A DNA stretch of 20,000 nt from the IMG/VR virus record IMGVR_UViG_3300022836_000006, one strand, 5' to 3'. This document shows positions 42 through 20,000 of the stretch, in pieces. The stretch's first letter is position 1, and every line of letters begins with the position of its first letter. Under the pieces are notes generated by a model. The model searched no databases. It was not told the DNA's origin and was given only the letters and a program-made list of their open reading frames with translations. The stretch comes from an uncultured virus (IMG/VR IMGVR_UViG_3300022836_000006) (taxonomy: Duplodnaviria; Heunggongvirae; Uroviricota; Caudoviricetes). A program made the translations under genes and the position numbers.

Positions 42-84
42 GGGAATTATTCCTTAGTAGAATTGTTACGGTTGCGGGGAGGTC

Positions 85-1155: not shown

Positions 1156-1171
1156 CTGGATACATGCCCAC

Positions 1172-1202
1172 AAAAAAGACCCGGGCTGTTACACCCGGGT
1201 CT
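1172..1202 (-). terminator. intrinsic terminator after scaffold gene
   Basis: Minus strand AGACCCGGGT-GTAACA-GCCCGGGTCT followed by a U-tract. Confidence 0.8.
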
Positions 1203-1249
1203 CCCCCATATGTCTTATGAAACCGAGGTGGCTACCTACCCCTAAGCAG

Positions 1250-2263: not shown

Positions 2264-2275
2264 CGGTTACAGGGG

Positions 2276-2821: not shown

Positions 2822-2849
2822 GTCTTATCCTTTGCTGATGGTTTGCTGA

Positions 2850-3128
2850 CTATTCGGGTCTTGCCCGAGTAAACTCTTGAATCTCGAGGAACAGCATTCG
2901 CTTGCCCTCGGCTTGTGCAGTCCTGAGTGGGCACAGGTGGCCTGCCTTGTCTGGCACCATGGTGGGGCGGTTGGCGTAGCATGCAGCCATCATGTCGTTC
3001 CACACGATCTGCTGTGCCACGGTCCTGTCTGCGTCGGTGCCATACACTGACCGGTAAGCCTTGATGCGCCTGATCTTGGCCTTGCGGATCTCTGCTGCGT
3101 CTTCCTGCGCCTTCTCTATGTTGGTCAT
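2850..3128 (-). CDS. small conserved head-module protein (Bbp19-like)
   Basis: 92 aa directly after portal; Y..V(F/Y)GT...Q.VW.DM...C...PT...TA.AEGKR.L.L.I pattern. Confidence 0.65.
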   Translation of the reverse strand: MTNIEKAQEDAAEIRKAKIRRIKAYRSVYGTDADRTVAQQIVWNDMMAACYANRPTMVPDKAGHLCPLRTAQAEGKRMLFLEIQEFTRARPE

Positions 3129-3130
3129 GA

Positions 3131-4807: not shown

Positions 4808-4810
4808 TGA

Positions 4811-5020
4811 TTAGCCTCCTAGGAGTGTTTGCGGTGCGGTGACTGCTCCACCCGTCTCACCTGCGATGAGTGTCTTCCGGTAGCCTGACCGGCGCTTGGC
4901 ATCACGTCTGGACTGCATGGATGCTGCCTTCACTTCGGTGGATCGTTCGGTCACGGGTGGCGTGATGGTTGGTTGCGGATTCGATGCCCGGTCTGGGCTT
5001 TTTGAGCTTCTGAAACACAT
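4811..5020 (-). CDS. small basic virion-associated protein upstream of portal
   Basis: 69 aa, starts MCF and ends RR.G.RKTLIAG...TLLGG, as commonly seen just before this portal type. Confidence 0.6.
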   Translation of the reverse strand: MCFRSSKSPDRASNPQPTITPPVTERSTEVKAASMQSRRDAKRRSGYRKTLIAGETGGAVTAPQTLLGG

Positions 5021-5021
5021 G

Positions 5022-5372
5022 TTAGATTTCCCCTATGAATAATTCGCCTGCTCCAAGGCGGGTGAGTCCCAGCCTTTCCAAGTATTGGTAATATGGTGAC
5101 GTTGTCTCTGTGGGCAAGATAATGCGGGCGTGGCCAAGGTCGCGCATGGTCTGTCTGATGTGGCAGAAAACCTTGAACGAAACCATGGGGGTCTGGGCTG
5201 AGTGAACCCACATAAACACGGCCGGTGCGTAGACCGTCGAGAAGGCAGCGATGATCTGTCCTTGGTCATCTGATACAGCATGGCTAACGCATGGCACGTT
5301 GTGACCATCCATCACCATCAGGTTGTGGACATAGGCCGACTCGACCGGGGTGGTTATCTGGTATGTTTTCAT
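5022..5372 (-). CDS. hypothetical protein, possibly GNAT-like fold
   Basis: 116 aa overlapping TerL stop (ATGA); C-terminal ..YLERLGLTR resembles the GNAT terminal motif (weak). Confidence 0.55.
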   Translation of the reverse strand: MKTYQITTPVESAYVHNLMVMDGHNVPCVSHAVSDDQGQIIAAFSTVYAPAVFMWVHSAQTPMVSFKVFCHIRQTMRDLGHARIILPTETTSPYYQYLERLGLTRLGAGELFIGEI

Positions 5373-6976: not shown

Positions 6977-6985
6977 AGATTGGTC

Positions 6986-7369
6986 CTACCTCTTGCCCTT
7001 GCGGATCCGGTAGAGCAGCGAGCCTTCAACCTTCAGCTCCATCTTCTCGGGTGCATCGTAGCCACACATCTTGGCTGTGCGCTCAATGGCTGATATCTTG
7101 TCCCGGTTGGTGGCCTTGGGTGACTGGGCTATTCCGGCCAGCAGTTCGAGCGACTTGGCCCGGTCGAGCATCTTGGCTTTATCCTGCTTCGCACGCTCTG
7201 TGGCCATGTATACCCGCACCCCCTTGTGGGCAACAAGGTCCACTGCCTTCCTCGCTACTGCCCTTGTGCTGCCCCGGGTGTTGTAAGCCCCCCGGTAAGC
7301 GTCCGAACCAGTGCTGCCCTTGAGGATGAAATCGGCGAACGCGATCTGCTTGGCTGATAGAGGTCTCAC
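6986..7369 (-). CDS. terS: terminase small subunit
   Basis: 127 aa immediately upstream of terL; LSAKQIAFADFILKG.TGSDAYRGAY HTH-like N-terminus and DKISAIE..AKM.G C-terminal motif. Confidence 0.8.
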   Translation of the reverse strand: MRPLSAKQIAFADFILKGSTGSDAYRGAYNTRGSTRAVARKAVDLVAHKGVRVYMATERAKQDKAKMLDRAKSLELLAGIAQSPKATNRDKISAIERTAKMCGYDAPEKMELKVEGSLLYRIRKGKR

Positions 7370-7707
7370 TTGGATTCAGGGGATGGAGGGCCGTAACGAG
7401 GGCGGACTAGGGCGAATGTGAACGCCCCGTCTATCCACCTGACGATGCTGTAGCCGCAATCGAATACGGCTGCTAGGAGATTCCAGACTGGGAGGATTGC
7501 TGCTACTGATCTGCCTAGGACTGCCCCAATGGTGAGCTGGGGGTTGTAGTATTTCTCTGTGCAGTTCTGGGTGTCTAGCTTCCAGCCTCTGACGCAGCGT
7601 CCGCTGTAGCAAATGGTGCAGATGGTGAGGGGTAACCAGTAAAGGAATACAGCGAGGAGGCTGTTGAATTCGAATGATGTGAGGAGGTGGAATATGCGGT
7701 CGAACAT
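7366..7707 (-). CDS. small membrane protein (113 aa)
   Basis: Likely start ATG 7707 (MFDRIFHLL) just after the upstream stop, rather than 7785; two hydrophobic segments; stop overlaps terS start. Confidence 0.6.
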   Translation of the reverse strand: MFDRIFHLLTSFEFNSLLAVFLYWLPLTICTICYSGRCVRGWKLDTQNCTEKYYNPQLTIGAVLGRSVAAILPVWNLLAAVFDCGYSIVRWIDGAFTFALVRPRYGPPSPESK

Positions 7708-7714
7708 GATGGTC

Positions 7715-9397
7715 TTAATTGTTGTTGAACGTTGTGAAGGTGGGGCCGGTGGCTCCGTGGCTGATAGTGGTGCCTCCCATGGCAATGTTGTTGCCGCACT
7801 TGTTGGTGGAGGAGGCCTTGAGCTGGTTGTAGCTCAGCCACGTGGATGAATTGGTGTTTGATAGGACTCCACTGATCAGCACGTCCTCCATGGTCAAACT
7901 ACCTTGTGATCCTCCCGGGGTGAGGTAGATGGCTTCGTTGCCTCCGTTGGGGATTTCGATGGAGGTGTTGGCGATGGTGAGTCCTATCCAATTGGTGCCT
8001 GATGCTGTTTCGTCGATGGCTACTCCCCGATAAAATGCTGTATCCGTTTCGCGGATGCTGCCACCAATGATCGCCACGCTGCTGAAGTCTCCGATGTAAA
8101 TTCCCACGACACTCTTGATGTCATCTATTACGTTTTCCGAGCACGTCACATTGTCCGCTCCTGTGATGCGGATTCCGTAGCCTGAGTAGTATCCAACATC
8201 CCCTGTGATCATGTTGCCACGCAGCTGGATCTGCTCTGGTCGCCCGCCTGACTCTTTGACCACGATGATCCCGGACTGTTTGACCTGACTGATCACGTTG
8301 GACTCGACCATGATCTGCTTGGTATCTGCGAGAATGGCGATGCCTCTGCCCCATGCTGAGATTGCAATGGTTGCAGTTGCGCCGGATCCGCCTCCACCGG
8401 TGAACCCCACGGTGATTGCTGCAGCTACTGCGTCAGTGTGTCCGGTGCCGGAAGTGGTGATCAATACCAGCCTGACGATGCCCCCCGTCACTACTGCTGT
8501 AGCTGCTACTCCAGCCGGTGCTCCGGTCAGGGTTACGGTTGGTGCTGTCGTATAACCTGTGCCTCCTGCTGTGACTCCGATGGTCATAACATCCCTTCGG
8601 GCTCGACAGATGTTGTTCGAGATTAGCACGTCCTGACTTTCACTGCATGCGATGATGTCGTCGTCGCAGCCAAGTATCATGTTATTGGATATGACTGCGT
8701 GCAGCAGGTTCTTTGTGTTGATCCCGTCTGCGTAATTGTTGCCGACTAAGTTGTGGTGGCAGTTGAGGCCGATCATCGGATCAGTGGAGAGGTCTCTGCC
8801 CCCCCCGAACTGGAATGCAAACTCACCTGAGTTGATTACTTCATTGTCGTAGAAACTGCAGTAGTCTGCATCGACTACCACTGCCTGCTGGCCCGGTTTC
8901 CGGTAGACGCAATTGCCATCAAAGGTCATGCCGCAGATGGTCACGAATACACAGTCCTCATCGACATCCAGCACCCTCCCGCCTGTGGTTGCGGGGTGAT
9001 CATAGGTGCCGTCAGATACCGCTGATGTCCCGGTATTGCGTAGCGTGCTTACCCCTTTCCCTTCCCCCTTTATTGTGATTCCGGTCAGGTTCGATATGGC
9101 CACATCTCCAAGGTAGACACCGGGAGGGAAATACAGGACAGAGTCGTCGGTCATTGCTGCCACTGCTGCGTCAATCGCTGTCCGATCATCGGTGGCACCA
9201 TCACCCACTGCGCCGTGGTCCTTTACGTTGATCCACCCCAGCTCGGTCATGGTGATGTCACCTGAGCCACCACCACCACTGCTGGTGGGCGTGCCTCCCT
9301 TTGCTGCGTTGCCTCCATCACTGGGCACGTCAGGTGCTGGGCCTGCTATGGCGCGATCTCTGAGCGTCGAGCCTGAGCTGTTGGTGCTAATGGCCAT
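7715..9397 (-). CDS. parallel beta-helix / pectin-lyase-fold protein (tailspike or depolymerase-like)
   Basis: 560 aa; WINVKDHGAVGDGATDDRTAIDAA...VLYFPPGVYL N-terminal signature plus repeated ISNN/DGI beta-helix rungs. Confidence 0.82.
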   Translation of the reverse strand: MAISTNSSGSTLRDRAIAGPAPDVPSDGGNAAKGGTPTSSGGGGSGDITMTELGWINVKDHGAVGDGATDDRTAIDAAVAAMTDDSVLYFPPGVYLGDVAISNLTGITIKGEGKGVSTLRNTGTSAVSDGTYDHPATTGGRVLDVDEDCVFVTICGMTFDGNCVYRKPGQQAVVVDADYCSFYDNEVINSGEFAFQFGGGRDLSTDPMIGLNCHHNLVGNNYADGINTKNLLHAVISNNMILGCDDDIIACSESQDVLISNNICRARRDVMTIGVTAGGTGYTTAPTVTLTGAPAGVAATAVVTGGIVRLVLITTSGTGHTDAVAAAITVGFTGGGGSGATATIAISAWGRGIAILADTKQIMVESNVISQVKQSGIIVVKESGGRPEQIQLRGNMITGDVGYYSGYGIRITGADNVTCSENVIDDIKSVVGIYIGDFSSVAIIGGSIRETDTAFYRGVAIDETASGTNWIGLTIANTSIEIPNGGNEAIYLTPGGSQGSLTMEDVLISGVLSNTNSSTWLSYNQLKASSTNKCGNNIAMGGTTISHGATGPTFTTFNNN

Positions 9398-9819
9398 TAG
9401 TTGCGGGTGTTCAGGTTTTTCCAGTGCCAGACGTGGTGAAGCTCTGGTCGCCCGCCTTCACCTGTGATGATATGGGTCTCTGGCTCCGTCCGCAGGACCA
9501 TGGCTACGTCATCCCAGCACACCCACACCGTTTGCCCGTCTTGCGACCGCTCGTTTAGGTGATTTTTAATCGATTCCTCCGATTGCTTCTGCCCGGTGTG
9601 GACCCGAATTGTCTCTGCCGTCAGCTCACACAATTTCGCCACGTAGTTGTCGGCAATCTTGGTCGCAAGCACTCGGGTCAGGCCTTCATCTTCCACGACT
9701 TGGAAGCTGGATCGCTGCTCGGTGGTCTCATCGAGGATGGTCATGCCTAGGACATTGGCCAGTTTCAGGCTGCTAGGCAATGATGATTGATGCGCTGCAA
9801 AGTCTGGAGGAGCGGACAC
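9397..9819 (-). CDS. hypothetical protein (start uncertain: GTG 9819 or ATG 9744)
   Basis: Stop overlaps next start (TAATG at 9399-9395), implying translational coupling. Confidence 0.6.
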   Translation of the reverse strand: MSAPPDFAAHQSSLPSSLKLANVLGMTILDETTEQRSSFQVVEDEGLTRVLATKIADNYVAKLCELTAETIRVHTGQKQSEESIKNHLNERSQDGQTVWVCWDDVAMVLRTEPETHIITGEGGRPELHHVWHWKNLNTRN

Positions 9820-9882
9820 ACTTCACCTAAGCAGATGAAGTGTGATGATTCGTGCAAATGCAGTTATCGCGTATCACTTTAC

Positions 9883-10127
9883 CCGTAGCAAATCCCCCCG
9901 GCATACGTCCAATTCAAGGGTGTAATTAGCTGAGTCGGTGGCACAGGATTTACGCCTGCCGTCTGGATCATTGTATCCGGTCCAGTCCGCTGCGGTCGCG
10001 ACCCGCTTGCCAAAACCGCCTGAGAGGGACCACCGACTCAGCCAATTACATGCTACGGTCCTCAGCTCTTTCGAGCACGTAGAATTAAGTCCGGTTGGTA
10101 GTAGTGTATTCAGGCCGGACACCGTAG
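9883..10127 (-). ncRNA. candidate structured non-coding RNA downstream of tRNA-Met
   Basis: 22-bp stem (10050-10029 with 9942-9921) whose non-canonical pairs are G-U only on the minus strand; internal hairpins incl. T-arm-like GCAGG-CGUAAAU-CCUGU; outer CCGUAGCA/UGCUACGG stem; GCUC-GAAA-GAGC hairpin. Confidence 0.6.
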
Positions 10128-10135
10128 ACAGGCAT

Positions 10136-10211
10136 TGGTAGCAGAGGAGGGATTCGAACCCCCGACTTCCAGATTATGAGTCTAGCGATCTAACCGCTGA
10201 TCTACTCTGCA
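10136..10211 (-). tRNA. tRNA-Met (CAU), CCA encoded
   Basis: UGCAGAG UA GAUC AGCGGUUA GAUC G CUAGA CUCAUAA UCUGG AAGUC GGGGG UUCGAAU CCCUC CUCUGCU A CCA; full 76-nt cloverleaf. Confidence 0.95.
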
Positions 10212-10324
10212 ACAATGGCCTGTCATGCCTCCCGGGTGGCGCTCTTGCGAGGTTCGAGCCTTGGGGAGGGGTTCCAGTGGCTATCGCTGAGAGCTGGGAT
10301 CAGTGACCATTCTTCGTGGTTGAG

Positions 10325-10356
10325 CCACTAAGATCGGATCCGCCCTCCAATGTAAA
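10325..10356 (-). promoter_or_regulatory. putative promoter for tRNA/late arm (TTTACA-N19-TTAGTGG)
   Basis: Same motif and 19-nt spacing as upstream of the capsid gene; also directly after a terminator. Confidence 0.45.
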
Positions 10357-10360
10357 CACC

Positions 10361-10392
10361 AAAAAGCCCCAGCCAATGAAGGCCGGGGCTTT
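10361..10392 (-). terminator. intrinsic terminator-like hairpin
   Basis: Minus strand AAAGCCCCGGCC-TTCATT-GGCTGGGGCTTTTT, with a G-U pair and a U-tract in this orientation. Confidence 0.7.
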
Positions 10393-10501
10393 AAGGAAAA
10401 ACGATCACTGTATGCGATAACGCCCCAATTTCTGGGGCCGGCTGCCACCGTCTGCAAGCTAAAATGCAGGTGAGTTTACCACTGTCAGAACACTTTCTTC
10501 A

Positions 10502-10528
10502 TATAGCAGTGATTTAATTATTGCTATA
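10502..10528. promoter_or_regulatory. operator-like inverted repeat in the divergent intergenic region
   Basis: TATAGCA-N13(AT-rich)-TGCTATA between the two transcription arms. Confidence 0.4.
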
Positions 10529-10612
10529 CCGCAGCAGGTATGATCCAGATGGAGGCCACGTCAGTCACTGCTTCGCTCACAACGAGGCTTCACCTCCCAA
10601 ATAACTCAGACC

Positions 10613-11005
10613 ATGAAGTCCTTCAAGATTCTTTCCCGCCACCCCACCCTCGCCGCCGCTGTTGCAGCTGCTGGCATCGATCTCTCATACAATGAGCCTG
10701 AAGCCCGCCGCGAAATCGCCACCACCGACAAGCAGGTGCTGGAGGCCTTCATCGTCGAGAAGTATGGCGAACCTATTGTCCTGTATGTCTACGACTGCGA
10801 CATCCGCCTTTTGAACACGTTCACCCCGTTTTCCAGTTGCCTGTCCGGCAGTGACTTTGGGGTGGCTGCACTGAGCACGGACGGCACCGAGATCGTTGCC
10901 ACCGAGGCTTCAGTTCGATACAGCCGCAACTGCATTTATCGCGTCCAATCAACCCAATGCATTTCCAAGATTGGTGCGATCTGGGCCACCAAAGATTTCT
11001 GCTAA
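10613..11005 (+). CDS. hypothetical protein (first early gene)
   Basis: 130 aa ORF with phage-like codon usage; first ORF of the plus-strand arm. Confidence 0.7.
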   Translation: MKSFKILSRHPTLAAAVAAAGIDLSYNEPEARREIATTDKQVLEAFIVEKYGEPIVLYVYDCDIRLLNTFTPFSSCLSGSDFGVAALSTDGTEIVATEASVRYSRNCIYRVQSTQCISKIGAIWATKDFC

Positions 11006-11087
11006 CCCTCCCACCTGCCTGACCCCTGCCCTGACCCTAGCCCGGTCGGGGGTTTCGGGTGCCCGCTTCTGGGCATCCCTTAATCTT

Positions 11088-11339
11088 ATGAAACAATCCC
11101 CCACCATCATCCACGCATGCCAAGTGCTGCGCTCTCGCGTTGCCTACAAGACGGCAGGTCTTCGGCTCAAAAAATCGTCCCTCATGAACACCGAACGCGA
11201 CACCAAGGCCATCCAGCAGGCCACCGAGCGTTACCGCAATTCGTGGATCGATCCGATCATCGATGCCATCGAGACGGGTGACCTGAAGATGCTCAAGGAT
11301 CTCACGGAACTCGAATCTGGAACCCACATCGAGTCATGA
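11088..11339 (+). CDS. hypothetical protein (83 aa)
   Basis: Start moved to ATG 11088 (MKQSPTII); stop overlaps next ATG (ATGA). Confidence 0.65.
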   Translation: MKQSPTIIHACQVLRSRVAYKTAGLRLKKSSLMNTERDTKAIQQATERYRNSWIDPIIDAIETGDLKMLKDLTELESGTHIES

Positions 11340-11734
11340 GCCAAGTCATCCCAGCCCGCCACGAACTGGTGCTGATGTTCCCACCCTCCTCGTCGTGGGA
11401 CAGCGTCCCCTACCCGATGAAACGCTACAGGGGCGCACTCACCACCATCGCGGACATCCCCTTTGGATCAATGCAGAAGGCGCGAATAGTCCACCTCTGC
11501 GTTCGCCGCAACATGGAGGCAGCGATCCACGACGGAGCTGGGAACAGGGCAGCCCGCCGGGAGGTGATCATCATCACCGATCAGCTCCAGCGCATCCGCC
11601 TCGCAAGAGGCTACCATGCCACCCTTAGCGCCGTCACCTACTGGGCAGACACACCTCGCCCCACACCTCAATCTGCCCGCCCTCTCCTCATTAACCCACA
11701 TGGAGACATCGAGTCTTCAGAACCCTCCCTGTAA
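11336..11734 (+). CDS. hypothetical protein
   Basis: 132 aa, ATGA-coupled to upstream gene. Confidence 0.6.
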   Translation: MSQVIPARHELVLMFPPSSSWDSVPYPMKRYRGALTTIADIPFGSMQKARIVHLCVRRNMEAAIHDGAGNRAARREVIIITDQLQRIRLARGYHATLSAVTYWADTPRPTPQSARPLLINPHGDIESSEPSL

Positions 11735-11741
11735 TATCATT

Positions 11742-12602
11742 ATGACTACATCATCCCCCACCATCATCGTGTCCGCTTTGGATGCGATCACTACCACTGC
11801 CACTGAGGCAGCTATTTCCCGACGTGACGAGTTGCTTGCAACCTGCTCACGTGGACGAAGTGTGCCGACTGCCGAGTCTGCTACCAAGGCCACCGAGGTT
11901 CTGCGGGAAGTCACCACTTTCACGCGCACCATCGAAGCTGCCCGCAGGGATGCCAAAGCGCCGGTCCTAGCTCTGGGCAAGCGCATCGACGCCGTGGCCG
12001 CAGATCTGACCGCTGAGCTCACGGCTGAGTTGGGCCGTATCAATTCGCTAGTGAGCGAGTTCAATGTCACTGAGCAGCGCCGGGCTGCTGAAGAGCGCCG
12101 GAAGGCTGCTGAAGAGCAAGATCGCATCTACCGTGAAGCTGAGCAGAAACGCTTGGACGAAGCTGAAGCTGCCCGTGCTGTTGAGGCTGCTGCCAAGGCC
12201 AAGCAGGATGAGTTGGCGCTGAAGGCATCCCGGGCCAAGTCTGAGGAGCGCCGGGCTGTGCTGGAAGCGCAAGCTGCCAAGGCCAAGGCCAAAGCTGAGG
12301 CTGATGCCGTGATCGAGGCTAAGCGCATCAAGGCTGAGAAGGATCGCGAGGCGCAGGAAATGGCCGCAACCCATGTTGCCGTCGCCATGGCCCAGCCCGT
12401 GAAGGCAGCCGGCACCGCTCTGCGGATGGAGACCAAGTTCGAGATCACCGACATCTACGCATTGTTCGATGCAGTCCCCGGCATGGTCATCCTCACCCCC
12501 AACAAGGCCGCGATCAAAGCCCAGATCAAGACCCTGCCTGAGGGTGCTTCCCTCCCCGGGGTCAAGCACTGGCAGGAGGCTAAAACCACCATCCGCTCGT
12601 AA
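11742..12602 (+). CDS. coiled-coil protein, Gp157/Gam-like phage recombination-module family
   Basis: Start ATG 11742; long Ala/Glu/Lys heptad region, IEAAR...KAPVL..GKRIDA and C-terminal KFEITD...PNKAAIKA.IK....LPGV signature. Confidence 0.7.
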   Translation: MTTSSPTIIVSALDAITTTATEAAISRRDELLATCSRGRSVPTAESATKATEVLREVTTFTRTIEAARRDAKAPVLALGKRIDAVAADLTAELTAELGRINSLVSEFNVTEQRRAAEERRKAAEEQDRIYREAEQKRLDEAEAARAVEAAAKAKQDELALKASRAKSEERRAVLEAQAAKAKAKAEADAVIEAKRIKAEKDREAQEMAATHVAVAMAQPVKAAGTALRMETKFEITDIYALFDAVPGMVILTPNKAAIKAQIKTLPEGASLPGVKHWQEAKTTIRS

Positions 12603-12772
12603 TGAAATACGCACTACGCTCCATTTGGATCCGCTACAATATCACGATGAGCCATGCGGCCAAATTCCTCTCCGACTCTCTCGGTGCCACTGCCTCTGCG
12701 CATTGGAATCGTGCTCAGAAATCAACTGTCGCTTCTCTCAATGAGACGCGAGTAAACCTCGAAATACGCTAA
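12602..12772 (+). CDS. small hypothetical protein (56 aa, not in ORF track)
   Basis: MKYALRSIWIRYNITMSHAAKF...VNLEIR; TAATG overlaps at both ends, exactly filling the gap. Confidence 0.65.
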   Translation: MKYALRSIWIRYNITMSHAAKFLSDSLGATASAHWNRAQKSTVASLNETRVNLEIR

Positions 12773-13179
12773 TGAAGAATCACACCCACAACCTCAAAAC
12801 TCCTGCCGGCCATATCCGGCTCGATGTGCGCCAGTTCGTTGGCCAGCGCACGATACCCAAGGAGCACGTGACCAACATGACCAACTCCGAACTGATCGCT
12901 GAGATCAAAGACGAGACGGGTGATCTGGTTATCCAGAACATCCTGCGCGTGCCCGGCAAAGAGTTCGACAGCAAGGTCGTCTCCTACGGCACCACGTGGT
13001 GGGACGCTTGGAAGATTGCCCACCCCCGGCTCGCTAAGCTGTTCCGCATGGAGCGTCCTCGCGTGACCGTGGCCTCCATCACTGCCAACTCCTTCTACCC
13101 ATCCCTGCGCGTGCCCAATCACAAGGCATTCGTGCAGGTAACGCTAGGTAAGCGCACGGGGACTCTCGATGACTACTAA
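12772..13179 (+). CDS. hypothetical protein
   Basis: 135 aa, TAATG-coupled. Confidence 0.7.
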   Translation: MKNHTHNLKTPAGHIRLDVRQFVGQRTIPKEHVTNMTNSELIAEIKDETGDLVIQNILRVPGKEFDSKVVSYGTTWWDAWKIAHPRLAKLFRMERPRVTVASITANSFYPSLRVPNHKAFVQVTLGKRTGTLDDY

Positions 13180-13414
13180 GGGAAAACCACATCACAATCA
13201 GAAGGGCACGGCACCCCGGGTCCGGCTGGGTGGTGGTCCGTTCATCGACGTCCGCACCATGGCCAAGTTGAAGGCATGGCGCAAAAACGGAGCATCCTTT
13301 GGCGAGATCATCGACCGTCTAACAACTCTCGCGTGCGATCATGGATTCGATCCAGCAACCCTCGCGTATAACAAGAAAACCAAAAGCAAAGTCCCCAGCA
13401 CTGCTAAGCAGTAA
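13169..13414 (+). CDS. small DNA-binding protein, ribbon-helix-helix-like
   Basis: 81 aa, basic; FIDVRTMAKLKAWRKNGASFGEIIDRL fits a strand-helix-helix pattern. Confidence 0.55.
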   Translation: MTTKGKPHHNQKGTAPRVRLGGGPFIDVRTMAKLKAWRKNGASFGEIIDRLTTLACDHGFDPATLAYNKKTKSKVPSTAKQ

Positions 13415-13489
13415 CCGGGGACAATCACGTCGGTCCCAAATAAAAGACCGAGGTGAGTCATCCATAACGTCAGTTAAAATACAATCAAA

Positions 13490-14224
13490 ATGAGTTCAGC
13501 AATTATCACTATCACCCAAATCCTTGCGCTGGTCCCCGGCCCTAAGGGCAAGGCAACTTGGATCAACGAGGAGTTCGACGCTCTCGTCTCCTTCGTCAAG
13601 CAGGACGACAAGAAGGCGGACATCATCCTCCACGACACCAATCAGCCTCAGATCCAGATCGCGGCTACCGTCTGGGGTCGCAACTGCCAGAGCTACCACG
13701 GCACGGTCTGCCACCTCAGCGGCGCTGGCATGTCCCGCACTGAGTTCAAGCAGACCCCTCAGGTCAGCATCGGCGAGAAAGCCGTGATCCAAGTTCTGGG
13801 GAATGCCCCGAACGGGATGGCGGCACCTGCACCTTCACCACAGACGGCACCCGCTGCCTACGTGCCTCCTGTCGCTCCTGCGCCACGCACCCACGCACCC
13901 AAGCCCATCCACGGTGCTACGGTGGGGATGGCCATCAATCAGGCCTGTGGCTTGATCAAGGTCACGCTGGGTGGCATGTCGGACACCTCTGCATTCGGCT
14001 ACCTTCAGTCGTCGGCCTTCTCGAAGGACATGCATGGGCTGGCCAGTGACATCCTGCGGGTGTCAATGCACCTTGAGGCTGGTAACCTTGCCCCGAGTGC
14101 GAAGGTTCGGGAAACGGCTCCTGCTCCTGCTCCGGCTCCTGCTCCTGCTCCTGCTCCCTATCTACAGGATCCGAAGCCCGCATTCCCGGTAGATGACAAC
14201 CTCGACGAAGACGTCCCATTCTAG
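13490..14224 (+). CDS. single-stranded DNA-binding-like protein
   Basis: OB-fold-like beta-rich N-terminus (IQIAATVWG...LSG....EFKQTPQVSIG), Pro/Ala linkers, acidic tail DDNLDEDVPF like the SSB C-terminal motif; adjacent to exonuclease. Confidence 0.65.
   Translation: MSSAIITITQILALVPGPKGKATWINEEFDALVSFVKQDDKKADIILHDTNQPQIQIAATVWGRNCQSYHGTVCHLSGAGMSRTEFKQTPQVSIGEKAVIQVLGNAPNGMAAPAPSPQTAPAAYVPPVAPAPRTHAPKPIHGATVGMAINQACGLIKVTLGGMSDTSAFGYLQSSAFSKDMHGLASDILRVSMHLEAGNLAPSAKVRETAPAPAPAPAPAPAPYLQDPKPAFPVDDNLDEDVPF
14117..14158 (+). repeat. 6-bp tandem repeat x7 encoding (Ala-Pro)7 linker
   Basis: GCTCCN x7 within the SSB-like gene. Confidence 0.85.
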
Positions 14225-14225
14225 T

Positions 14226-15059
14226 ATGAACGACTCATCACATTGGTATGATCGTGAGGGCAACCCCTGTCATACCCAAGCCACCAAGAAGGGGGCCAAG
14301 AATCCTACCCGGGCCACCACCGTCCGTGACGCACGGAAACTGGACCTGTTGGGATCCACCAGCGGCATGCTCGACGTGCTCAGCAAGGACGCTCTGATCC
14401 GCTGGAAGCTTGAGCAGGTCACGAAAGCGTGCTTCGCCGACGGTCATATCTCCTCCTCATACGTCTACCTGACGCCCGAGCAATACCACGAAAAAATGGT
14501 CGATCAGGCCTTCACCAAGGTGGAGCAGGCAGCTGATGCTGGGACTCTCATTCATGCCGCGCTGGACTTAGCATTCCAAGGCGCTGAGTGGGATCACGAT
14601 CAGCAGGTCTTCCTGCCTGAAACTGGATCGGTCGAACCCATGAGCACATTTATCCTGCCCACCCTCGGATGGCTCACTGCCAACGAGGTCGTGGCCACCG
14701 GATACGAGCAGGTCGTGGTCAACGACAAGGAAGGCTACGCTGGCACAGCTGACCTGCCCTACACCCGGCGCAGTGCAGTGGGTGTAGGTGACTACAAGAC
14801 CCGCAAGACCAAGGTCGGAATGCCCGTGAAGGCCTACGACACGCAAGCGATGCAGATCGCCTCCTACCTCGCAGGATTGAATGACAATGTCATCCCAGAG
14901 GGTGCCGAGGGGTTCAACTTGTTCATCTCCACCACCGAACCGGGCCGTATCGAGGCAGTCTGGTATAACCAATCTGAACTCCAGAAAGCATGGGAGGCAT
15001 TCAAGGCCTGCTGTGCAATCTGGCGCTTCCAGAAAAACTACGATCCTCGGATCACTTAA
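14226..15059 (+). CDS. PD-(D/E)XK exonuclease
   Basis: Start ATG 14226; AADAGTLIH, YEQVV...GYAGTADL, GDYKT, MQIASY motifs. Confidence 0.85.
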   Translation: MNDSSHWYDREGNPCHTQATKKGAKNPTRATTVRDARKLDLLGSTSGMLDVLSKDALIRWKLEQVTKACFADGHISSSYVYLTPEQYHEKMVDQAFTKVEQAADAGTLIHAALDLAFQGAEWDHDQQVFLPETGSVEPMSTFILPTLGWLTANEVVATGYEQVVVNDKEGYAGTADLPYTRRSAVGVGDYKTRKTKVGMPVKAYDTQAMQIASYLAGLNDNVIPEGAEGFNLFISTTEPGRIEAVWYNQSELQKAWEAFKACCAIWRFQKNYDPRIT

Positions 15060-15091
15060 TCCCCCGCACAGGCGGAACAACAACCCATAAA

Positions 15092-15706
15092 ATGAAGATC
15101 CTAAAAGTAATCCGTGATAATAATTTCGTGCAAATCAAGCACGAGGTTCAAGGCTATCAAGCCGTCGAAGAACGCGACATCAAAGCGCATGAGGCTCCCC
15201 TCAAATCGTTTGACGATGCACTACAGGCACTCGCCCCTGTCGTCGTCAAATTGCTGGAGTATCCACCATCCAGCAGCTCAACCATCGTGATCAAAAGCAT
15301 CTCGGTGTCCCACACCACCAAGGGCACTCGCTCCGTGGGCATCAGCTTCCGAAAGAAGCTCAACGCAACTGGCAACTATCACCCCATGAGCACCCCAATG
15401 GTGCAGTTCGATGACGCAGCTGAAGGAGAGGGCAACCGCAAGGAAGTCCACGCATCCCATGCGGCACTGATCGACCTGTCTATCGCTGAGGCCATCCGGT
15501 ATTCCGAGGGTGAGCGTCAGCAGGCCTTGCTACCTCTCGACGATGTCGGAAGTCCGGTCTCGCCAGCTGATGGGGACGAGCTGCGTTACGATACCGCCCC
15601 TGCCGGCGATGATGGAGAGGACAACGTCGAGAAGTTCCCTCCTGCCAAGAAGAAGGCACCTGCCAAGAAGAAGGCACCTGCCAAGAAGACCATCGCTAAA
15701 GCCTAA
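15092..15706 (+). CDS. hypothetical protein with acidic linker and histone-H1-like PAKKK tail
   Basis: Start ATG 15092 (MKILKVIRD); ends PAKKKAPAKKKAPAKKTIAKA. Confidence 0.72.
   Translation: MKILKVIRDNNFVQIKHEVQGYQAVEERDIKAHEAPLKSFDDALQALAPVVVKLLEYPPSSSSTIVIKSISVSHTTKGTRSVGISFRKKLNATGNYHPMSTPMVQFDDAAEGEGNRKEVHASHAALIDLSIAEAIRYSEGERQQALLPLDDVGSPVSPADGDELRYDTAPAGDDGEDNVEKFPPAKKKAPAKKKAPAKKTIAKA
15641..15689 (+). repeat. 18-bp tandem repeat x2.7 (PAKKKA)
   Basis: CCTGCCAAGAAGAAGGCA twice plus 13 bp of a third copy. Confidence 0.9.
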
Positions 15707-15719
15707 CCCTTAAACGCTC

Positions 15720-15751
15720 CCCGGGTGCGTCAACCCGGGCCTTTTTCTTTT
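15720..15751 (+). terminator. intrinsic terminator
   Basis: CCCGGGT-GCGTCA-ACCCGGG then CCTTTTTCTTTT, just after the stop at 15706. Confidence 0.7.
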
Positions 15752-16120
15752 ATGTCTACTACCCACCTCCCAATCGAACGCCGTCTCTTCATTTCCCAAG
15801 CTAGTGGATGGAGTGACTTCAGGCAAATCGGTGATCGCCTCTTTGGCGTCCCCCCCGGTCATGTCCCGCTTAACGAGTGCGACAAGTTCCGACTCGTCCC
15901 AGACTACGACGTGGATCTCGATGCCTGCCATGCGGCCGAGAACCTGATGAAGGAGTCCCTCGGTGATGCCTACGCTATCACCCTGCGGATGGTTATCCGT
16001 GAGCGTTACCGGAAGGTGAACAAACCCCATTCGAGCGTCCCAGCATGGCGCAACTACAGCGCCACCGCTTCTGAGCGGACCGAAGCAATCTGCCGCCACC
16101 TCCAACCCAACCCCCAGTAA
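15752..16120 (+). CDS. phage protein, ABA-sandwich/NinX-like family
   Basis: Start ATG 15752; VPDYDVDLDACHAAE and ATASERTEAIC motifs. Confidence 0.6.
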   Translation: MSTTHLPIERRLFISQASGWSDFRQIGDRLFGVPPGHVPLNECDKFRLVPDYDVDLDACHAAENLMKESLGDAYAITLRMVIRERYRKVNKPHSSVPAWRNYSATASERTEAICRHLQPNPQ

Positions 16121-16125
16121 TCATC

Positions 16126-16524
16126 ATGTCCCAGACCCTAGGCCAGTTCGTCGAGTCGGCCATCTTCGACGCCAAGAAAGCGGGCAAGCAATTCCCCCGG
16201 GGAGTGTTCGCCCTTGAAGTAGACAAGCTCCATGCCGCTTGGCTGGTTCAGGACCAGTTCAAACTCGAGGAGGATTGGCCCAAGAATAAGTTCCCCCCCC
16301 CGCACGAAGCAGTGACGCAATACGCGCAGAGCATTGGCTACCCGCTCGACGGTCGATCATTCTGCGACTCCTACGGTCAAAAGGGCTGGTTAGTTGGCAA
16401 GGCCAAGATGAAGGACTGGCAAGCCGCCGTGCGTAATTGGAAATCAAACACGTGGGGCGTGCTCATCACTGCCTCCAGAGCTGCCGACAACAACAACCAA
16501 GCCCGCGACTACACCCAAGTATGA
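16126..16524 (+). CDS. replication-initiator C-terminal-domain protein
   Basis: FPPP.EAV..YA.....DG.SF.D.Y..KGW.VGK.KMKDWQAAVRNW motif; ATGA-coupled to the DnaC-like ATPase. Confidence 0.7.
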   Translation: MSQTLGQFVESAIFDAKKAGKQFPRGVFALEVDKLHAAWLVQDQFKLEEDWPKNKFPPPHEAVTQYAQSIGYPLDGRSFCDSYGQKGWLVGKAKMKDWQAAVRNWKSNTWGVLITASRAADNNNQARDYTQV

Positions 16525-17441
16525 CCACCGAAATCACTATCGATCCTGAGGCAGAAGAAAAAGTTCTGGCACTACGAAATCAGCGTGATGCCTTCCGCGA
16601 AGCTAAGCCCAACTGCGACCGAGTCGTCTTCATCCCGGGTGGTGGCAGCATCCCACACTGTGGAGTCGCTGACATTAACGAGGTTGGCGGACTCAACATG
16701 TTCCACTTGGCTGAACTCCACCGGAACCCTGACCACCCCATGAATGAGGTAATCGACGGGGAGTGCTCGCAGGGATGTGGGACCAAGTTACGGATGTCCC
16801 GCTTCTGGATGCCTAAGACAGCTTGCGATGAGTGCCGGGCCAAGGCCATCGAGGATGCCATGAACGATGAATGCAGAAAGGAATGGGAGCGTGTATGCCC
16901 GAAGCAACTACGTGACACCGACTCCAACCACCCGGGCTTCCCTAAGCATATCTATCGCGAGAACATCGGCTACGATGGGAACAGCAGCCTCTTCCTGTTT
17001 GGCCCCACAGGGTCAGGGAAATCACGCTGTGGTTCCCTCCTGATGAAGCGGGCATTGATGAAGCGCAAGACGGTTAACTTTCTATGGCCGGAAGAGCTGA
17101 AGGCCTATGCCAAAAGCAACAACGAGCGCCTCAAGTTCATCCGCGAATACGGATCAACCAATGTGCTGCTCATGGATGATGCGCTGCTGACTGGCGCTCA
17201 GGACGAACGCATCGCTGACTTTTTGAAAGACCTCATCGACTTCATGCAGCGCCACGGAAACCAGATGATCATCACCAGCCAGATCGGTGGCGAAGATTAC
17301 GAAGAGCAGGCCAACAAATTCGGCAACATCACCAAGACCGACCGGGAGCGCATCGATGCCCTGATGCGCCGGATCCGTGAATCATTTAAGGTCATCCCCT
17401 TCGTCGCCTCATCTGCACCTGAAAACAAGGAGATGTTCTGA
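16521..17441 (+). CDS. DnaC/IstB-like AAA+ ATPase (helicase loader)
   Basis: Start ATG 16521; Cys cluster CSQGC...CDEC, Walker A LFLFGPTGSGKS, Walker B VLLMDD, IITSQ, RRIRE. Confidence 0.82.
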   Translation: MTTEITIDPEAEEKVLALRNQRDAFREAKPNCDRVVFIPGGGSIPHCGVADINEVGGLNMFHLAELHRNPDHPMNEVIDGECSQGCGTKLRMSRFWMPKTACDECRAKAIEDAMNDECRKEWERVCPKQLRDTDSNHPGFPKHIYRENIGYDGNSSLFLFGPTGSGKSRCGSLLMKRALMKRKTVNFLWPEELKAYAKSNNERLKFIREYGSTNVLLMDDALLTGAQDERIADFLKDLIDFMQRHGNQMIITSQIGGEDYEEQANKFGNITKTDRERIDALMRRIRESFKVIPFVASSAPENKEMF

Positions 17442-17767
17442 TGAGTAAATCCACCAAAAGCGTGAAGGTCAAAGCGGTGCCGGGTGAGATCCTGCGCTAC
17501 CAAGTCGAGAGCTGGGGCCGGGCCGATCTCCACCACATCGTTGACCTCATGGAGCAAGGCGGAAACGGGGAATGCGGTTGCACCGACTTCAGGATGCAAT
17601 GCACGACCAACTGGAAGGAGAACGGGGGCGCGTGGGTGCTCTACGGTTTCCCGGGTCACCCTGATCCTAAGCGCACCCAATGCAGGCACATCTACTGCGC
17701 CCGCATGAAGTTCACCAACGACACTCTCAAGCTCCTGTCCAAACAGCAGGCGCAACCCCAGTCATGA
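17441..17767 (+). CDS. SWIM-type zinc-finger protein
   Basis: YQVES.....HIVDL......ECGCTDF...CRHI pattern. Confidence 0.7.
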   Translation: MSKSTKSVKVKAVPGEILRYQVESWGRADLHHIVDLMEQGGNGECGCTDFRMQCTTNWKENGGAWVLYGFPGHPDPKRTQCRHIYCARMKFTNDTLKLLSKQQAQPQS

Positions 17768-18021
17768 GCAAAGGTGTCGGTCGGATCTGCTCATTCTACC
17801 CTGACCCCAACATGGTCAAGCAGTGCGTGGTGCAACCCGGCGCTCAGCGCCTCACCGGGGTCGTCACCGAATGCGTCAAGGCTCCTCCTCCTAAAGGATG
17901 GAAGCGCCCAGACTTTACTCTAACTGTGCGTGGCAAATCCGGTCGCACCGTCACCATCAGCCTCATCGAAAACTACGCCCAGTTCCACGCAACGTGGCCT
18001 GCATCATCCCAATCCAAATGA
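17764..18021 (+). CDS. hypothetical protein (85 aa)
   Basis: Start ATG 17764 (ATGA overlap with upstream stop); its stop overlaps next start. Confidence 0.6.
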   Translation: MSKGVGRICSFYPDPNMVKQCVVQPGAQRLTGVVTECVKAPPPKGWKRPDFTLTVRGKSGRTVTISLIENYAQFHATWPASSQSK

Positions 18022-18470
18022 CTACTCCGATCCAAACATTAACCAACGCCGAAATCATCGCAGAGATGTGCCGATTGTTGCGCCTCCTATCCAAGCGGGC
18101 CGACGCCGCCATGCCGGTCCATTCTCCCGATCGCTCCGCGAACAAATTGATCCTTATACAACAGGCGATTTGCGACGTGTTACGCACTCCGATCGCGGTC
18201 ATGTCATCCCGAGCCCGACCTGACAACTACGTCCAAGCACGGCACATCGCGATGTTCCTGAGCCGCGAGCTGACCGAATACTCCATGCAAGATATAGCCA
18301 AATCGTTTCGCCCGACAATGAACCACTCCACGATCACTCATGGCCACAGAGCGTGCCTCGATCGCATGATGCACGTCAAAGGATTTGAGTCGCTTGTCGA
18401 TGCCTGCAAACAACGGGCGCTGAAGCTAATCGACAACGCCGGCCTCCCCCTCTTCCAGCAATCGTTGTGA
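18018..18470 (+). CDS. DnaA C-terminal (domain IV) HTH protein
   Basis: Start ATG 18018; S..R....VQARHIAMFLSRELTEYSMQDIAKSF....NHSTITHG matches the DnaA domain IV consensus. Confidence 0.8.
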   Translation: MTTPIQTLTNAEIIAEMCRLLRLLSKRADAAMPVHSPDRSANKLILIQQAICDVLRTPIAVMSSRARPDNYVQARHIAMFLSRELTEYSMQDIAKSFRPTMNHSTITHGHRACLDRMMHVKGFESLVDACKQRALKLIDNAGLPLFQQSL

Positions 18471-18841
18471 AAAACATTAAATCCCTATTCCCAAATGCCT
18501 CCCCTTCCTTCCTCAAACTCAACGGTCTTCCGGATGACGTGCCAACACCGAGTCCCAAGCCTAAACGCGCTGTTCGCTCTAAACCATTGGGGGCGACTAA
18601 AGTTAAAAAAAGAGATTCAAGCTTCTATGTTGTCCGGATTAAAAGCTTCCGAGTCCGATTGCTCGACACAGACAACCTCATTCCGAAGTGGCATGTTGAT
18701 GCCCTCCGCTACGCTGGAATCATACCTGATGACTCGCCGGAGCTTGCCGACATCACGACGACACAAGAAAAAGTCGCCACCAAAGCCGAAGAGCGCACCG
18801 AAATCGAAATCACGCGACACCTAGAACGCCCGGCACTGTGA
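18467..18841 (+). CDS. rusA: RusA-like Holliday-junction resolvase, catalytic part
   Basis: RLLDTDNLIPK..VDAL..AGIIPDDS...Q.K.....ERTEIEI carries the RusA DxDN..K..D.L...DD motif; GTGA overlap with upstream gene. Confidence 0.75.
   Translation: MKNIKSLFPNASPSFLKLNGLPDDVPTPSPKPKRAVRSKPLGATKVKKRDSSFYVVRIKSFRVRLLDTDNLIPKWHVDALRYAGIIPDDSPELADITTTQEKVATKAEERTEIEITRHLERPAL
18495..18824 (+). CDS. nested +1-frame ORF encoding a RusA-N-terminus-like segment
   Basis: VFRMTCQHRVPSLNALFALNHWGRLKLKKEIQASMLSGL resembles the RusA-family strand-PSxN-helix N-terminus missing from the other frame. Confidence 0.55.
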   Translation: MPPLPSSNSTVFRMTCQHRVPSLNALFALNHWGRLKLKKEIQASMLSGLKASESDCSTQTTSFRSGMLMPSATLESYLMTRRSLPTSRRHKKKSPPKPKSAPKSKSRDT

Positions 18842-19035
18842 TCACATGCATCCCAAACGTCAGGCGGCTCTATTGCTCCTTTTTCGGTCATGCAAAGCAG
18901 CACGTAATCGACACCTACCCATCCCCAACCCAAGTTCCCGCCTATCCCCGGGCCGAAACCGTGAAGGTCTTGTGCCCTCGATGTCGGCTCATCTACATCA
19001 CCAAAGTGTTCACCCTCCATCCCCCATCAAAATAA
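18838..19035 (+). CDS. small Cys/His protein (C.FFGH...CxRC, DUF1660-like)
   Basis: 65 aa, GTGA overlap; RRLYCSFFGH...CPRC. Confidence 0.55.
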   Translation: MITCIPNVRRLYCSFFGHAKQHVIDTYPSPTQVPAYPRAETVKVLCPRCRLIYITKVFTLHPPSK

Positions 19036-19042
19036 GAACCAA

Positions 19043-19324
19043 ATGAACCCTAACCTAATAGACCTCCTACAGCGCGTCCAAACTGGCCACGCGACCTGTA
19101 TGTTTGCGGCGAAAGAGATCGAAGCCAATGAGGAAAAACTCCTCGGCCTAATTGAATCGGCTGCAAACCGGCTCGAAACGATACAGGAAACCGACACCAC
19201 TGGGCTACAACTGGCCGCCGACATTAAGCGCCTTCGCGCAGTGTTTCGGTCTGCGAACAACACTATGAGACACGGGCCTGACGCGCCCGAAAACAAAAGC
19301 GGCGAACCACCGTTGTCTCGATAA
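19043..19324 (+). CDS. hypothetical protein whose C-terminus is encoded by att-like site 1
   Basis: 93 aa; reads through AAC 19256-19258 in frame and stops inside the hairpin's right arm. Confidence 0.65.
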   Translation: MNPNLIDLLQRVQTGHATCMFAAKEIEANEEKLLGLIESAANRLETIQETDTTGLQLAADIKRLRAVFRSANNTMRHGPDAPENKSGEPPLSR

Positions 19325-19335
19325 TCTGGTTCAAC
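19252..19335. mobile_element. attC-like recombination site 1
   Basis: TGCGAAC-aacac-TAT GAGACA CGG...CCG [T] TGTCTC [G] ATA-atctg-GTTCAAC: AAC/GTT cores, 5-nt unpaired spacers, two extrahelical bases. Confidence 0.8.
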
Positions 19336-19344
19336 TTTTTTACT

Positions 19345-19713
19345 ATGAAACCGATACTCAAATACGATGGTGACCGCGCCGAATCAGCGGCGTGCCTTTT
19401 AACAGACCTCGACGAGTTCGATGGGGAGTCTGCCGACGCCCAACGCATGATCGAAGAAGCGATGGCCTGCGAGGTTCAGCGAGTGCTCAAACGGATAACC
19501 CGGCACACGGAAAACGAAGGCGTCTACGGATGGAGGGTAGTGTTCGATTACGATAACATCCATGACGGGGCGCGGATTCTTGACGGAGACGGCCACTCGA
19601 TGGCGGAGTGTTATGAGAAGGGCGAGCCGGACGATCAATTCGTGAGGGCGATAGACTCACTCATTCGCGGCCCGTTGAACAACGAGGTCAGACGCGACCC
19701 GTCGAAGGCTTAA
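19345..19713 (+). CDS. cassette-borne hypothetical protein
   Basis: 122 aa between sites 1 and 2; reads in frame through AAC 19678-19680 and stops in the loop of site 2. Confidence 0.7.
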   Translation: MKPILKYDGDRAESAACLLTDLDEFDGESADAQRMIEEAMACEVQRVLKRITRHTENEGVYGWRVVFDYDNIHDGARILDGDGHSMAECYEKGEPDDQFVRAIDSLIRGPLNNEVRRDPSKA

Positions 19714-19802
19714 AACCTCAACCAACCAATAAAAATGTCATACCAAAATAAAATGTCAGAAGCCGGACAGCGAGGGTCGTTGTCTGAAGTGGTTTGTTAT
19801 GC
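19674..19802. mobile_element. attC-like recombination site 2
   Basis: GTTGAAC-aacga-GGT CAGACG CGACCC...GGGTCG [T] TGTCTG [A] AGT-ggttt-GTTATGC; same spacing as site 1 with a compensatory G-C to C-G change. Confidence 0.8.
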
Positions 19803-20000
19803 TCAGATTGGCATCGACTGCTGCAATCAACCGATAATCCCAACGCGTGCCAAGCTGTCGATGCACACCAATCGGCACACCAGCACGTCAGGAAACTCGT
19901 GGGGATGGGTCGATGGTTGCTCGCTAAACATATGCTGGTCAAACGACGGCGAGAAATTCAACAGAAAAAAGGCCGCTGAACTGGTTGCTTTGCATAACAA
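19735..20000 (+). CDS. cassette-borne hypothetical protein (partial, not in ORF track; start 19735 or 19753)
   Basis: MSYQNKMSEAGQRGSLSEVVCYAQIGIDCCNQ...KKAAELVALHN, open to the window edge; starts inside the loop of site 2. Confidence 0.7.
   Translation, partial: MSYQNKMSEAGQRGSLSEVVCYAQIGIDCCNQPIIPTRAKLSMHTNRHTSTSGNSWGWVDGCSLNICWSNDGEKFNRKKAAELVALHN
19992..20000. mobile_element. left core of attC-like site 3 (truncated)
   Basis: GCATAAC-aa is the exact reverse complement of site 2's right core GTTATGC, followed by the same 'aa' as sites 1 and 2. Confidence 0.7.

Follow-up and report, generated by a model that had tools for sequence, protein, structure and literature searches.

The 3' end of IMG/VR record IMGVR_UViG_3300022836_000006, an uncultured virus assigned to the Caudoviricetes, carries two imperfect hairpins between small genes, and raises the question of whether a phage can hold gene cassettes of the integron type, on which strand they are arranged and which enzyme would move them. 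The analysed stretch, referred to as the window at its full length of 20,000 nucleotides, is part of a podovirus-like phage genome of salt-lake origin, and the hairpins lie at positions 19252-19335 (site 1) and 19674-19802 (site 2). Overall, the 3' end of the window is probably the start of a small, integrase-less array of integron-type cassettes, i.e. a cluster of attC sites lacking an integron integrase (CALIN), whose cassettes are shuffled among phages by the integron integrase (IntI) of the host. The definition of a CALIN calls for at least two attC sites that share a strand, are separated by less than 4 kb and have no IntI in the vicinity (PMC4889954). Accordingly, the two window sites are 339 nt apart, four sites are present in the same phage when it is followed on a metagenome contig (L049), and no PF00589 match was found in the 38-kb phage record.

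Both hairpins were recovered on the + strand with the layout described in the original prediction, namely AAC, a 5-nt spacer, 3+6 bp, a loop, an extra T, 6 bp, a second extra base, 3 bp, a 5-nt spacer and GTT; the positions and geometry held for both, and only the 3-bp box of site 2 turned out weaker than had been described. Site 1 (TGCGAAC AACAC TAT GAGACA ..loop.. T TGTCTC G ATA ATCTG GTTCAAC), an attC-like site that has its bottom strand on + and marks the left (distal) array edge, formed Watson-Crick pairs in 9/9 positions of the stem, with T19313 and G19320 as extrahelical bases. Site 2 (GTTGAAC AACGA GGT CAGACG ..loop.. T TGTCTG A AGT GGTTT GTTATGC) is attC-like as well and has a long variable loop, which contains the stop codon of one gene (gene B) and the start codon of the next (gene C), and its 6-bp box consists of five Watson-Crick pairs and one G.T. 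The same site 2 body was also found behind a different gene in L001, a viral contig from an unrelated phage. A strict scan for this geometry returned two matches in the window and four in L001, all on the + strand, compared to 0.11 matches per ~20 kb, both strands together, in dinucleotide shuffles (200 each). The window count is circular as the rule was derived from the window, while the three further L001 sites are independent of it. The extrahelical T was present in every site of the strict scan; in attC sites such a T, with a G 6-8 nt away, occurs on one arm only and marks the bottom strand. AAC and GTT were invariant in the 16 phage sites that could be aligned (16/16), the four variable core bases following the consensus (RYYYAAC/GTTRRRY) loosely. 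Central spacers, whose unpaired state is one of the defining features of attC sites (PMC2727003), are 5 nt long on each side in sites 1 and 2, with left spacers of 5-6 nt in the relatives and in the aadA1 attC of the class 1 integron, and the shortest loop, in L001 site 4, has 3 nt and the longest, in window site 2, ~85 nt. Thermodynamic stability was dropped as a mark of sites 1 and 2, their folding energy not setting them apart from shuffles and the DNA-fold z-scores being uninformative; L001 sites 4 and 5 had z-scores of -2.5 to -4.4.

Relatives of these sites were sought with covariance models. A motif taken from the L001 sites was searched in one genome per prokaryote species; its specific version gave no match among the prokaryote genome contigs, and a looser pattern gave 24 loci. 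A first model, R1, was built from three L001 sites and accepted sites (E<=0.01) in 9 of these 24 loci, the others looking like chance. Six of the nine were contigs of Opitutaceae metagenome-assembled genomes (MAGs); the others were a Pelagicoccus scaffold, a contig from a Myxococcales bin and, accepted only weakly, one from a Synergistaceae bin. As R1 proved too narrow for the window (site 1 at 14.6 bits, site 2 mis-registered), it was replaced by R2, a model built from 19 bacterial sites only, with the first eight of the nine accepted contigs taken forward. A MAFFT alignment of five first sites was also dropped, as sites with long loops were misaligned.

R2 was used for the covariance scan. 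It matched exactly the two predicted sites on the + strand and over their full length, i.e. site 2 at 19674-19802 (24.2 bits, E 6.9e-5) and site 1 at 19252-19335 (15.3 bits, E 0.043), which agrees with the attC identity that had been proposed for them; there was no third match in the window and none in the other 18.3 kb of the phage, as covered by its 38-kb record. Fourteen further sites were found by R2 in phage loci. The positive control, the aadA1 attC (ATCTAAC GCTTGA GTT AAGCCG ... T CGGCTT G AAC GAATT GTTAGAC), was also recovered by the geometry scan, and ranked first in 50 kb of plasmid R100 with 25.8 bits under R2. When the phage sites were aligned by fitting to R2 (n=16), 99% of the cells were paired and compensatory changes occurred in 9 of the 10 stem pairs; none of 500 shuffles reached the observed values, and a slid control was far off as well. 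The eight bacterial contigs carried arrays or single sites, with stems such as CAGACG/TGTCTG and the same G.T pair as window site 2. The same site family was found in four further viral contigs (L005, L006, L009 and L013), while the viral pattern matches in L007, L008 and L012 look like chance and were set aside. Verrucomicrobia are listed among the integron-bearing phyla (PMC4889954). By structure and sequence, sites 1 and 2 are true attC sites, belonging to the attC family of the chromosomal integrons of Opitutales (Verrucomicrobiota).

The innermost pair of the 6-bp box (columns 24/182 of alignment A4) is a G.T in 8 of the 16 phage sites and also in bacterial contigs L025, L028 and L030. 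As this pair becomes an A.C mismatch on the other strand, it would favour folding of the bottom strand.

The core sequences followed the rule expected of cassettes. The right core of site 1 (GTTCAAC) and the left core of site 2 (GTTGAAC) are exact reverse complements, and so are the right core of site 2 (GTTATGC) and GCATAAC at 19992-19998, as first noted. Among adjacent phage site pairs, 10 of 15 had right and left cores that were exact reverse complements, compared to 0/21 within a site and 17/405 for non-adjacent pairs; the misses include relic sites of L001. In the bacterial arrays of Opitutales, adjacent cores were exact complements in 5 of 6 pairs. On the + strand of the window phage upstream of site 1, its partner core GTTCGCA is absent and no R2 match occurs, so that site 1 can be kept as the left edge of the array.

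The L001 array showed several irregular elements. Its relic or degenerate sites start at 8444, 10380 and 10710, to which an orphan right core (GTTAGCC, 9517-9523) is added, lying ahead of gene B' with no recognisable left half. The extra site at 8444-8570 lies ahead of a 300-aa gene, and its core GTTCGGC mismatches the next site. From these sequences, the left part of the L001 array looks decayed. At its right end, the left core GCCCAAC (12089-12095) is the exact complement of the right core of site 5 and is followed by no hairpin; this half-site may be the original insertion point, either attI-like or a secondary site.

The motif GCATAAC (19992-19998, + strand) is the left core of a third site, the remainder of which lies past the end of the window, and a hairpin had been predicted there. 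In an exact-word search, viral contigs L001 and L002 matched the window solely at 19678-20000, at 100%, and in L001 GCATAAC is followed by AAAAA GTT CAGAGG ... T TCTCTG A AAC GTCGA GTTAGAT (L001 10085-10151). The metagenome contig L049 carries the window phage sequence 18408-19999 at 100% and then a different site 3 (ACCAC TAT CAGACA ... T TGTCTG C ATA ATCTG GTTCTGT; window-equivalent 19992-20087), which belongs to the subfamily of site 1 and is followed by gene D, a fourth site and an HNH-like gene. The predicted hairpin is completed in both contexts, and through L049 the right side of the array in the window phage was followed to window-equivalent ~21450. The last base of the window (position 20000) is an A, as in the L001-type site 3, where L049 has a C; the window contig may represent a third arrangement or an assembler crossover in the repeat.

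The comparison of these contigs also located the borders of the moving unit. The second cassette (19680..19997, + strand; site 2 body, gene C and GCATAA) is 100% identical in the unrelated phage represented by L001 and metagenome contig L048, and has two different upstream and two different downstream neighbours (L048, L049). BLAST identity between the window and L001 starts at A19678, in the left AAC of site 2, and covers 19678-20000 only, at 100%. Upstream of 19678 the genes differ, with gene B (122 aa) in the window and gene B' (82 aa) in L001, each ending in a left core that complements the core preceding it (GTTCAAC/GTTGAAC in the window, GTTAGCC/GGCTAAC in L001). By tblastx, L001 showed no similarity to the phage record (G000) besides the cassette. 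At the level of assembled metagenome contigs (Logan, 4 runs, labelled salt lake metagenome), L001-type upstream sequence was joined at 19678 in 4/4 runs and L049-type sequence followed 19999 in one run, with contig or loose ends at 19678 and 19999; parts of the stretch left uncovered in runs X19, X21 and X23 carry no meaning. The first predicted cassette (19258..19679, + strand; left-core C, site 1 body, gene B and GTTGAA) is bounded by AA|C points and would exist as a circle when excised, and its right boundary (19678-19680) coincides with the start of the L001 identity and with the graph branch in 4/4 runs.

Other phage contigs showed the same border. Identity between the site bodies common to L006, L013 and L009 starts at the left AAC, and continues downstream in L006 and L013. 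Gene D of L049 and its L001 homologue, both of which start in the loop of their own site, share 53% identity from M1 to the Asn of the junction AAC, after which their tails differ. Identity starts, assembly-graph branches and the end of the gene D unit all fall where crossover had been placed, at the left AA|C, and the contexts seen in the window, L001 and L049 change precisely at AAC. The moving unit is a site plus the gene that follows it, cut at AA|C; had the crossover been at the right core, the boundaries would lie elsewhere. G000 (38,086 bases, ~90% complete) overlaps the window at 1-19804 only, so that the last 196 window bases are outside it; it ends exactly 127 bases past 19678, the first base common with the other phage, which fits an assembly-graph branch with k=127 at the shared cassette. 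Such a letter-for-letter module in an unrelated phage suggests that phages borrow the integron enzyme of their host to trade accessory genes.

The sole other likeness between the two phages was detected by tblastx between window 9874-10122 (- strand) and positions 545-782 of L004, another stretch of the L001 contig, with ~60-75% identity over ~80 residues. The small gene concerned sits at the divergence of two gene blocks.

The array is inverted relative to that of bacterial integrons. In the window, L001, L005, L006, L009, L013 and L049, the recombining bottom strand, whose 3' arm carries the extrahelical bases, is the sense strand of the genes. Flanking genes on that strand were identified by Pfam matches in the window, L001, L049, L006, L013 and L009 (RusA-like, Acb2/Tad1, methylase, M15 peptidase, pentapeptide, Lar, AAA and terminase); the open reading frames (ORFs) of L005 agree in strand, but have no strong family match. 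In the controls, i.e. the aadA1 attC of R100, the Opitutales arrays and the published phage TJE1, the extrahelical-base strand is antisense to the gene. In TJE1, the R2 match (244-293) is on the - strand at the 3' end of orf1, which is on the + strand. The classical polarity, with the gene on the top strand followed by its attC, was not found in these seven phage stretches. A cassette in them reads [C, site, gene, xxxxAA], with the site at the 5' end of the gene and the start codon in the loop or just behind the site. The proposal of flipped sites, each travelling 5' of its gene, is borne out by comparison with the three classical controls, in which the genes lie on the opposite strand.

An unexpected further feature of the junction is its fixed reading frame. 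Gene A (19043..19324, + strand; 93 aa, no family match), the last gene of the phage backbone, has its final 23 codons inside site 1, from the in-frame AAC at 19256. Gene B (19345..19713, + strand; 122 aa, function not assigned) takes its last 12 codons from site 2, with the in-frame AAC at 19678. Gene C (19735..20000, + strand) is cut by the window end; it is 99 aa long in L049 and 102 aa in L001, where it ends in ...LHNKKFRGEESAANAVL compared to ...LHNTTIRQEGQPNE in L049, the tail after the junction Asn varying with the downstream site. The left-core AAC was an in-frame Asn codon of a long upstream ORF in 18 of 22 phage sites (8/10 plus 10/12) and then in both L049 sites (2/2), the tally including 19256, 19678 and 19996 of the window. 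The exceptions were two genes ending before the core, one TAA in the core and one relic inside an ORF. As AAC is read through in a fixed frame, each gene receives its last residues and stop codon from the following site. No long ORFs were found on the same strand of the bacterial arrays. The in-frame AAC would represent a standardised junction or translational coupling through the hairpin, and a frame kept fixed across the crossover bears on how cassettes can be constructed.

For genes A, B, C and D, no function emerged from PADLOC, PHROGs or Pfam, and for gene B the protein atlas offered no usable lead either. The start context TTTTACTATGAAA follows the right cores of both site 1 (19336-19350) and L001 site 3 (10152-10166), and no Shine-Dalgarno-like sequence was found in either. 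Sister arrays had more recognisable genes. In L001, the cassette gene between site 5 and GCCCAAC (11747-12055) matched the Acb2/Tad1 hairpin domain PF24729 with 31.3 bits, above the cut-off, a domain of the anti-CBASS/anti-Thoeris sponge type. An N6/N4 DNA methylase cassette and, beside sites, pentapeptide-repeat and Lar restriction-alleviation proteins were present in L006 (2975-3739, - strand) and L013 (3317-3934 and 4055-4648, - strand).

The enzyme is most economically sought in the host. The earlier report of no tyrosine recombinase in the window extends to the whole phage record (38 kb, ~90% complete), which had no PF00589 match. Neither was an IntI recognised in L001, while the search in bacteria with the same attC family was positive. 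The IntI family TIGR02249 was found above its cut-off in four of the five bacterial genomes with this attC family (363-373 vs 265 bits) but in none of 14 control genomes, and attC sites adjoin intI in 4/5 of the intI loci. No IntI in G000 and no recognised attI, in an analysis that did not search for attI and the cassette promoter Pc, set the locus apart from a complete integron; with no integrase in the phage, the array classifies as a CALIN. Given the shared attC family, host IntI acting on the phage sites is the most economical reading of the sequences.

During infection, host IntI would bind the folded bottom strands and exchange strands at the left AA|C. Recombination between two attC sites would excise cassettes as circles, which could be re-inserted at attC sites of the same or of a co-infecting phage, and accessory genes would in this way be shuffled among unrelated phages of one host. 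The cargo of the sister arrays would then be carried along, including the Acb2/Tad1-like sponge, the DNA methylase, the Lar-like protein and the pentapeptide protein. In Vibrio, a bottom strand that falls in the lagging-strand template is reported to fold and excise far more often (PMC13108822). It may be speculated that in the phage arrays, where the bottom strand is the coding strand, it would be exposed in transcription, and, provided that replication proceeds in the direction of the genes, also on the lagging-strand template. An extended reading, in which phages of hosts with integrons hold a back-to-front cassette pool of their own with standard in-frame junctions that fit any gene to any following site, trade it, counter-defence genes included, among unrelated phages via host IntI and are fast shufflers owing to the inverted polarity, is put forward tentatively and is less likely than not.

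Several points weigh against a host-driven attC array. The independence of R2 is incomplete, as its bacterial training sites were picked with the phage-derived R1, and site 1 scored only 15.3 bits with it (E 0.04). Site 2 pairs poorly in its 3-bp box (one Watson-Crick pair and one wobble), and DNA-fold z-scores are near zero for sites 1 and 2 (-0.3 to -1.6) and for L001 site 3 (0.1). Several cores deviate from the RYYYAAC consensus (e.g. TGCGAAC, GTTGAAC). At the second extrahelical position site 1 has G and site 2 has A, with G, A or C among relatives, and in both window sites AAC is followed by A, where most attC sites have G (PMC2727003). Five of the 15 adjacent core pairs are inexact and L001 has relic sites. 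The host is assigned solely by likeness of the attC sites, the evidence for exchange consists of assembled contigs, in which neither recombination itself nor a circle junction or deletion allele was observed, and the phage record has no tyrosine recombinase. The one near an array, ~11 kb off that of L001, is of the generic phage-integrase type, below the Pfam cut-off, and was rejected as an IntI candidate for lack of a TIGR02249 match.

A first rival explanation is that integron-like sites are here acted upon by a tyrosine recombinase other than IntI, phage-borne or not, in a phage-specific system that resembles attC or descends from it. Besides the recombinase ~11 kb from the L001 array, such a system would account for the departure of the cores and of the base after AAC from the classical consensus, and for phage cassettes forming a separate pool with genes opposite in strand to those of bacterial cassettes. 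The window phage has no PF00589 match at all, however, the L001 enzyme resembles an ordinary lysogeny integrase with no TIGR02249 match, and the stems (CAGACG/TGTCTG, with the same G.T) are common to attC sites beside Opitutales IntI genes; the chance of this explanation being right is small.

Equally, the sites might be a passive relic of a host array or attC, acquired by illegitimate recombination and then shared by homologous recombination at the hairpins, as in modular mosaicism. Such routes were proposed for phage CALINs by Qi et al. (PMC9892861), and the relic or degenerate sites of L001 and the imperfect core pairs (5/15) are in line with them. Yet, as the genes of host arrays are on the other strand, a fragment taken from the host should run antisense to the transcription of the phage, while long ORFs in sense orientation are present in the phage cassettes, including the one with the anti-defence Acb2/Tad1 match. 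Moreover, the identity boundaries lie precisely at AA|C and are not spread within the ~60-130-nt repeats, and the four variable bases of the core change together with the adjacent cassette. Core co-variation and AA|C boundaries are explained by a site-specific crossover and not by homologous exchange, and passive capture is accordingly judged improbable. That the hairpins act in mRNA as terminators, processing sites or translational-coupling elements, with a coincidental likeness to attC, is the least credible explanation, hardly to be entertained. They do lie on the sense strand, where their pairs are G.U-compatible and would turn into A.C on the opposite one, and upstream ORFs end inside them with downstream start codons in or just after them. 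An RNA role, which could exist as a side effect, nevertheless leaves unexplained both the right/left core complementarity across genes (10/15) and the architecture held in common with the bacterial attC model and a bona fide class 1 attC.

Integrons are known as bacterial gene-capture devices, and the cassettes described here indicate that those of phages can form a separate, inverted class. One cassette bounded by AA|C is identical in two unrelated phages of a single community, the sites match the integrons of the likely host itself, and the sister arrays carry domain matches of counter-defence or anti-restriction type. If host IntI acts on them, phages would possess a site-specific route for exchanging accessory genes, beside homologous mosaicism, and would exploit an adaptive system of the host for their own arms race. 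Recent preprints report anti-phage defence systems among integron cassettes. If the trading reading is true, the phage arrays would be a mirror-image counterpart to those bacterial integrons in which defence cassettes are stockpiled.

Concerning the remainder of the window, the - strand at 85-9800 encodes capsid (PF19821), portal (PF12236) and terminase-like proteins as well as a pectate-lyase-type tail protein. A 560-aa protein (7715-9397, - strand) with pectate-lyase-like and beta-helix domains is probably a tailspike or depolymerase. The + strand at 10.6-18.8 kb carries replication and recombination functions, including exonucleases, a DnaC-like ATPase, a DnaA_C helix-turn-helix protein and a RusA-like resolvase. 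A search via the DnaA_C-like protein for phages related to that of the window found none.

Among known systems, the Opitutales integrons (Opitutaceae MAGs and Pelagicoccus sp.; loci L022-L034 and L040-L045) have the same stems, G.T pair, spacer GTCTG and core rule, but the ORFs that occupy the stretches between their sites are opposite to the extrahelical-base strand and IntI lies beside the sites, whereas no IntI was found in the window phage. The class 1 aadA1 attC (R100, L015) shows the same architecture position for position, as can be seen from L001 site 4 (AAC, AATTA, GTT+CAGAGG, loop, T, TCTCTG, G, AAC, GTCTG, GTTAGAC), and differs in that the R100 strand is antisense with the site after the gene, while the phage strand is sense with the site before the gene. 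The promoter-stem-loop (PeSL) mobile regulatory cassettes of T4-type phages also consist of repeated hairpins that flank small, shuffled accessory genes, but these are exchanged by homologous recombination between the repeats, and are not known to have attC geometry, AAC/GTT cores or a core-complementarity rule. Reverse-oriented cassettes of sedentary chromosomal integrons, such as the toxin-antitoxin (TA) cassettes of Vibrio, have their gene on the bottom strand, as in the phage. Such cassettes bring their own promoters and are few among neighbours of classical orientation, whereas in the window phage the entire array is inverted and belongs to an operon of the phage. How TA systems are oriented within the array is noted in the legend of Fig. 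1 of PMC13108822.

Arrays of attC sites in phages are not new in themselves, as phage CALINs have been in print since 2023. Qi et al. (2023) reported three complete integrons, one In0 and 17 CALINs in phages, and IntI1 recombined 5 of the 6 phage attC sites tested (PMC9892861). The arrays reported there are said to be built like typical bacterial ones, with methylases among their cargo. The window array resembles them in that attC sites and cassettes occur in virulent or temperate phages without a nearby IntI and with DNA methylase cargo. It differs in that the TJE1 site is antisense and at the 3' end of its gene, while the family found in the window is inverted, has an in-frame junction and includes a cassette identical in two phages. 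In a literature search that did not cover subscription journals and the supplements of PMC9892861, neither inverted phage cassettes nor the in-frame junction nor the sharing of an identical cassette by unrelated phages was found described. Compared to the published phage CALINs, what is new here is the inverted polarity, the in-frame junctions and the evidence that phages exchange cassettes with one another.

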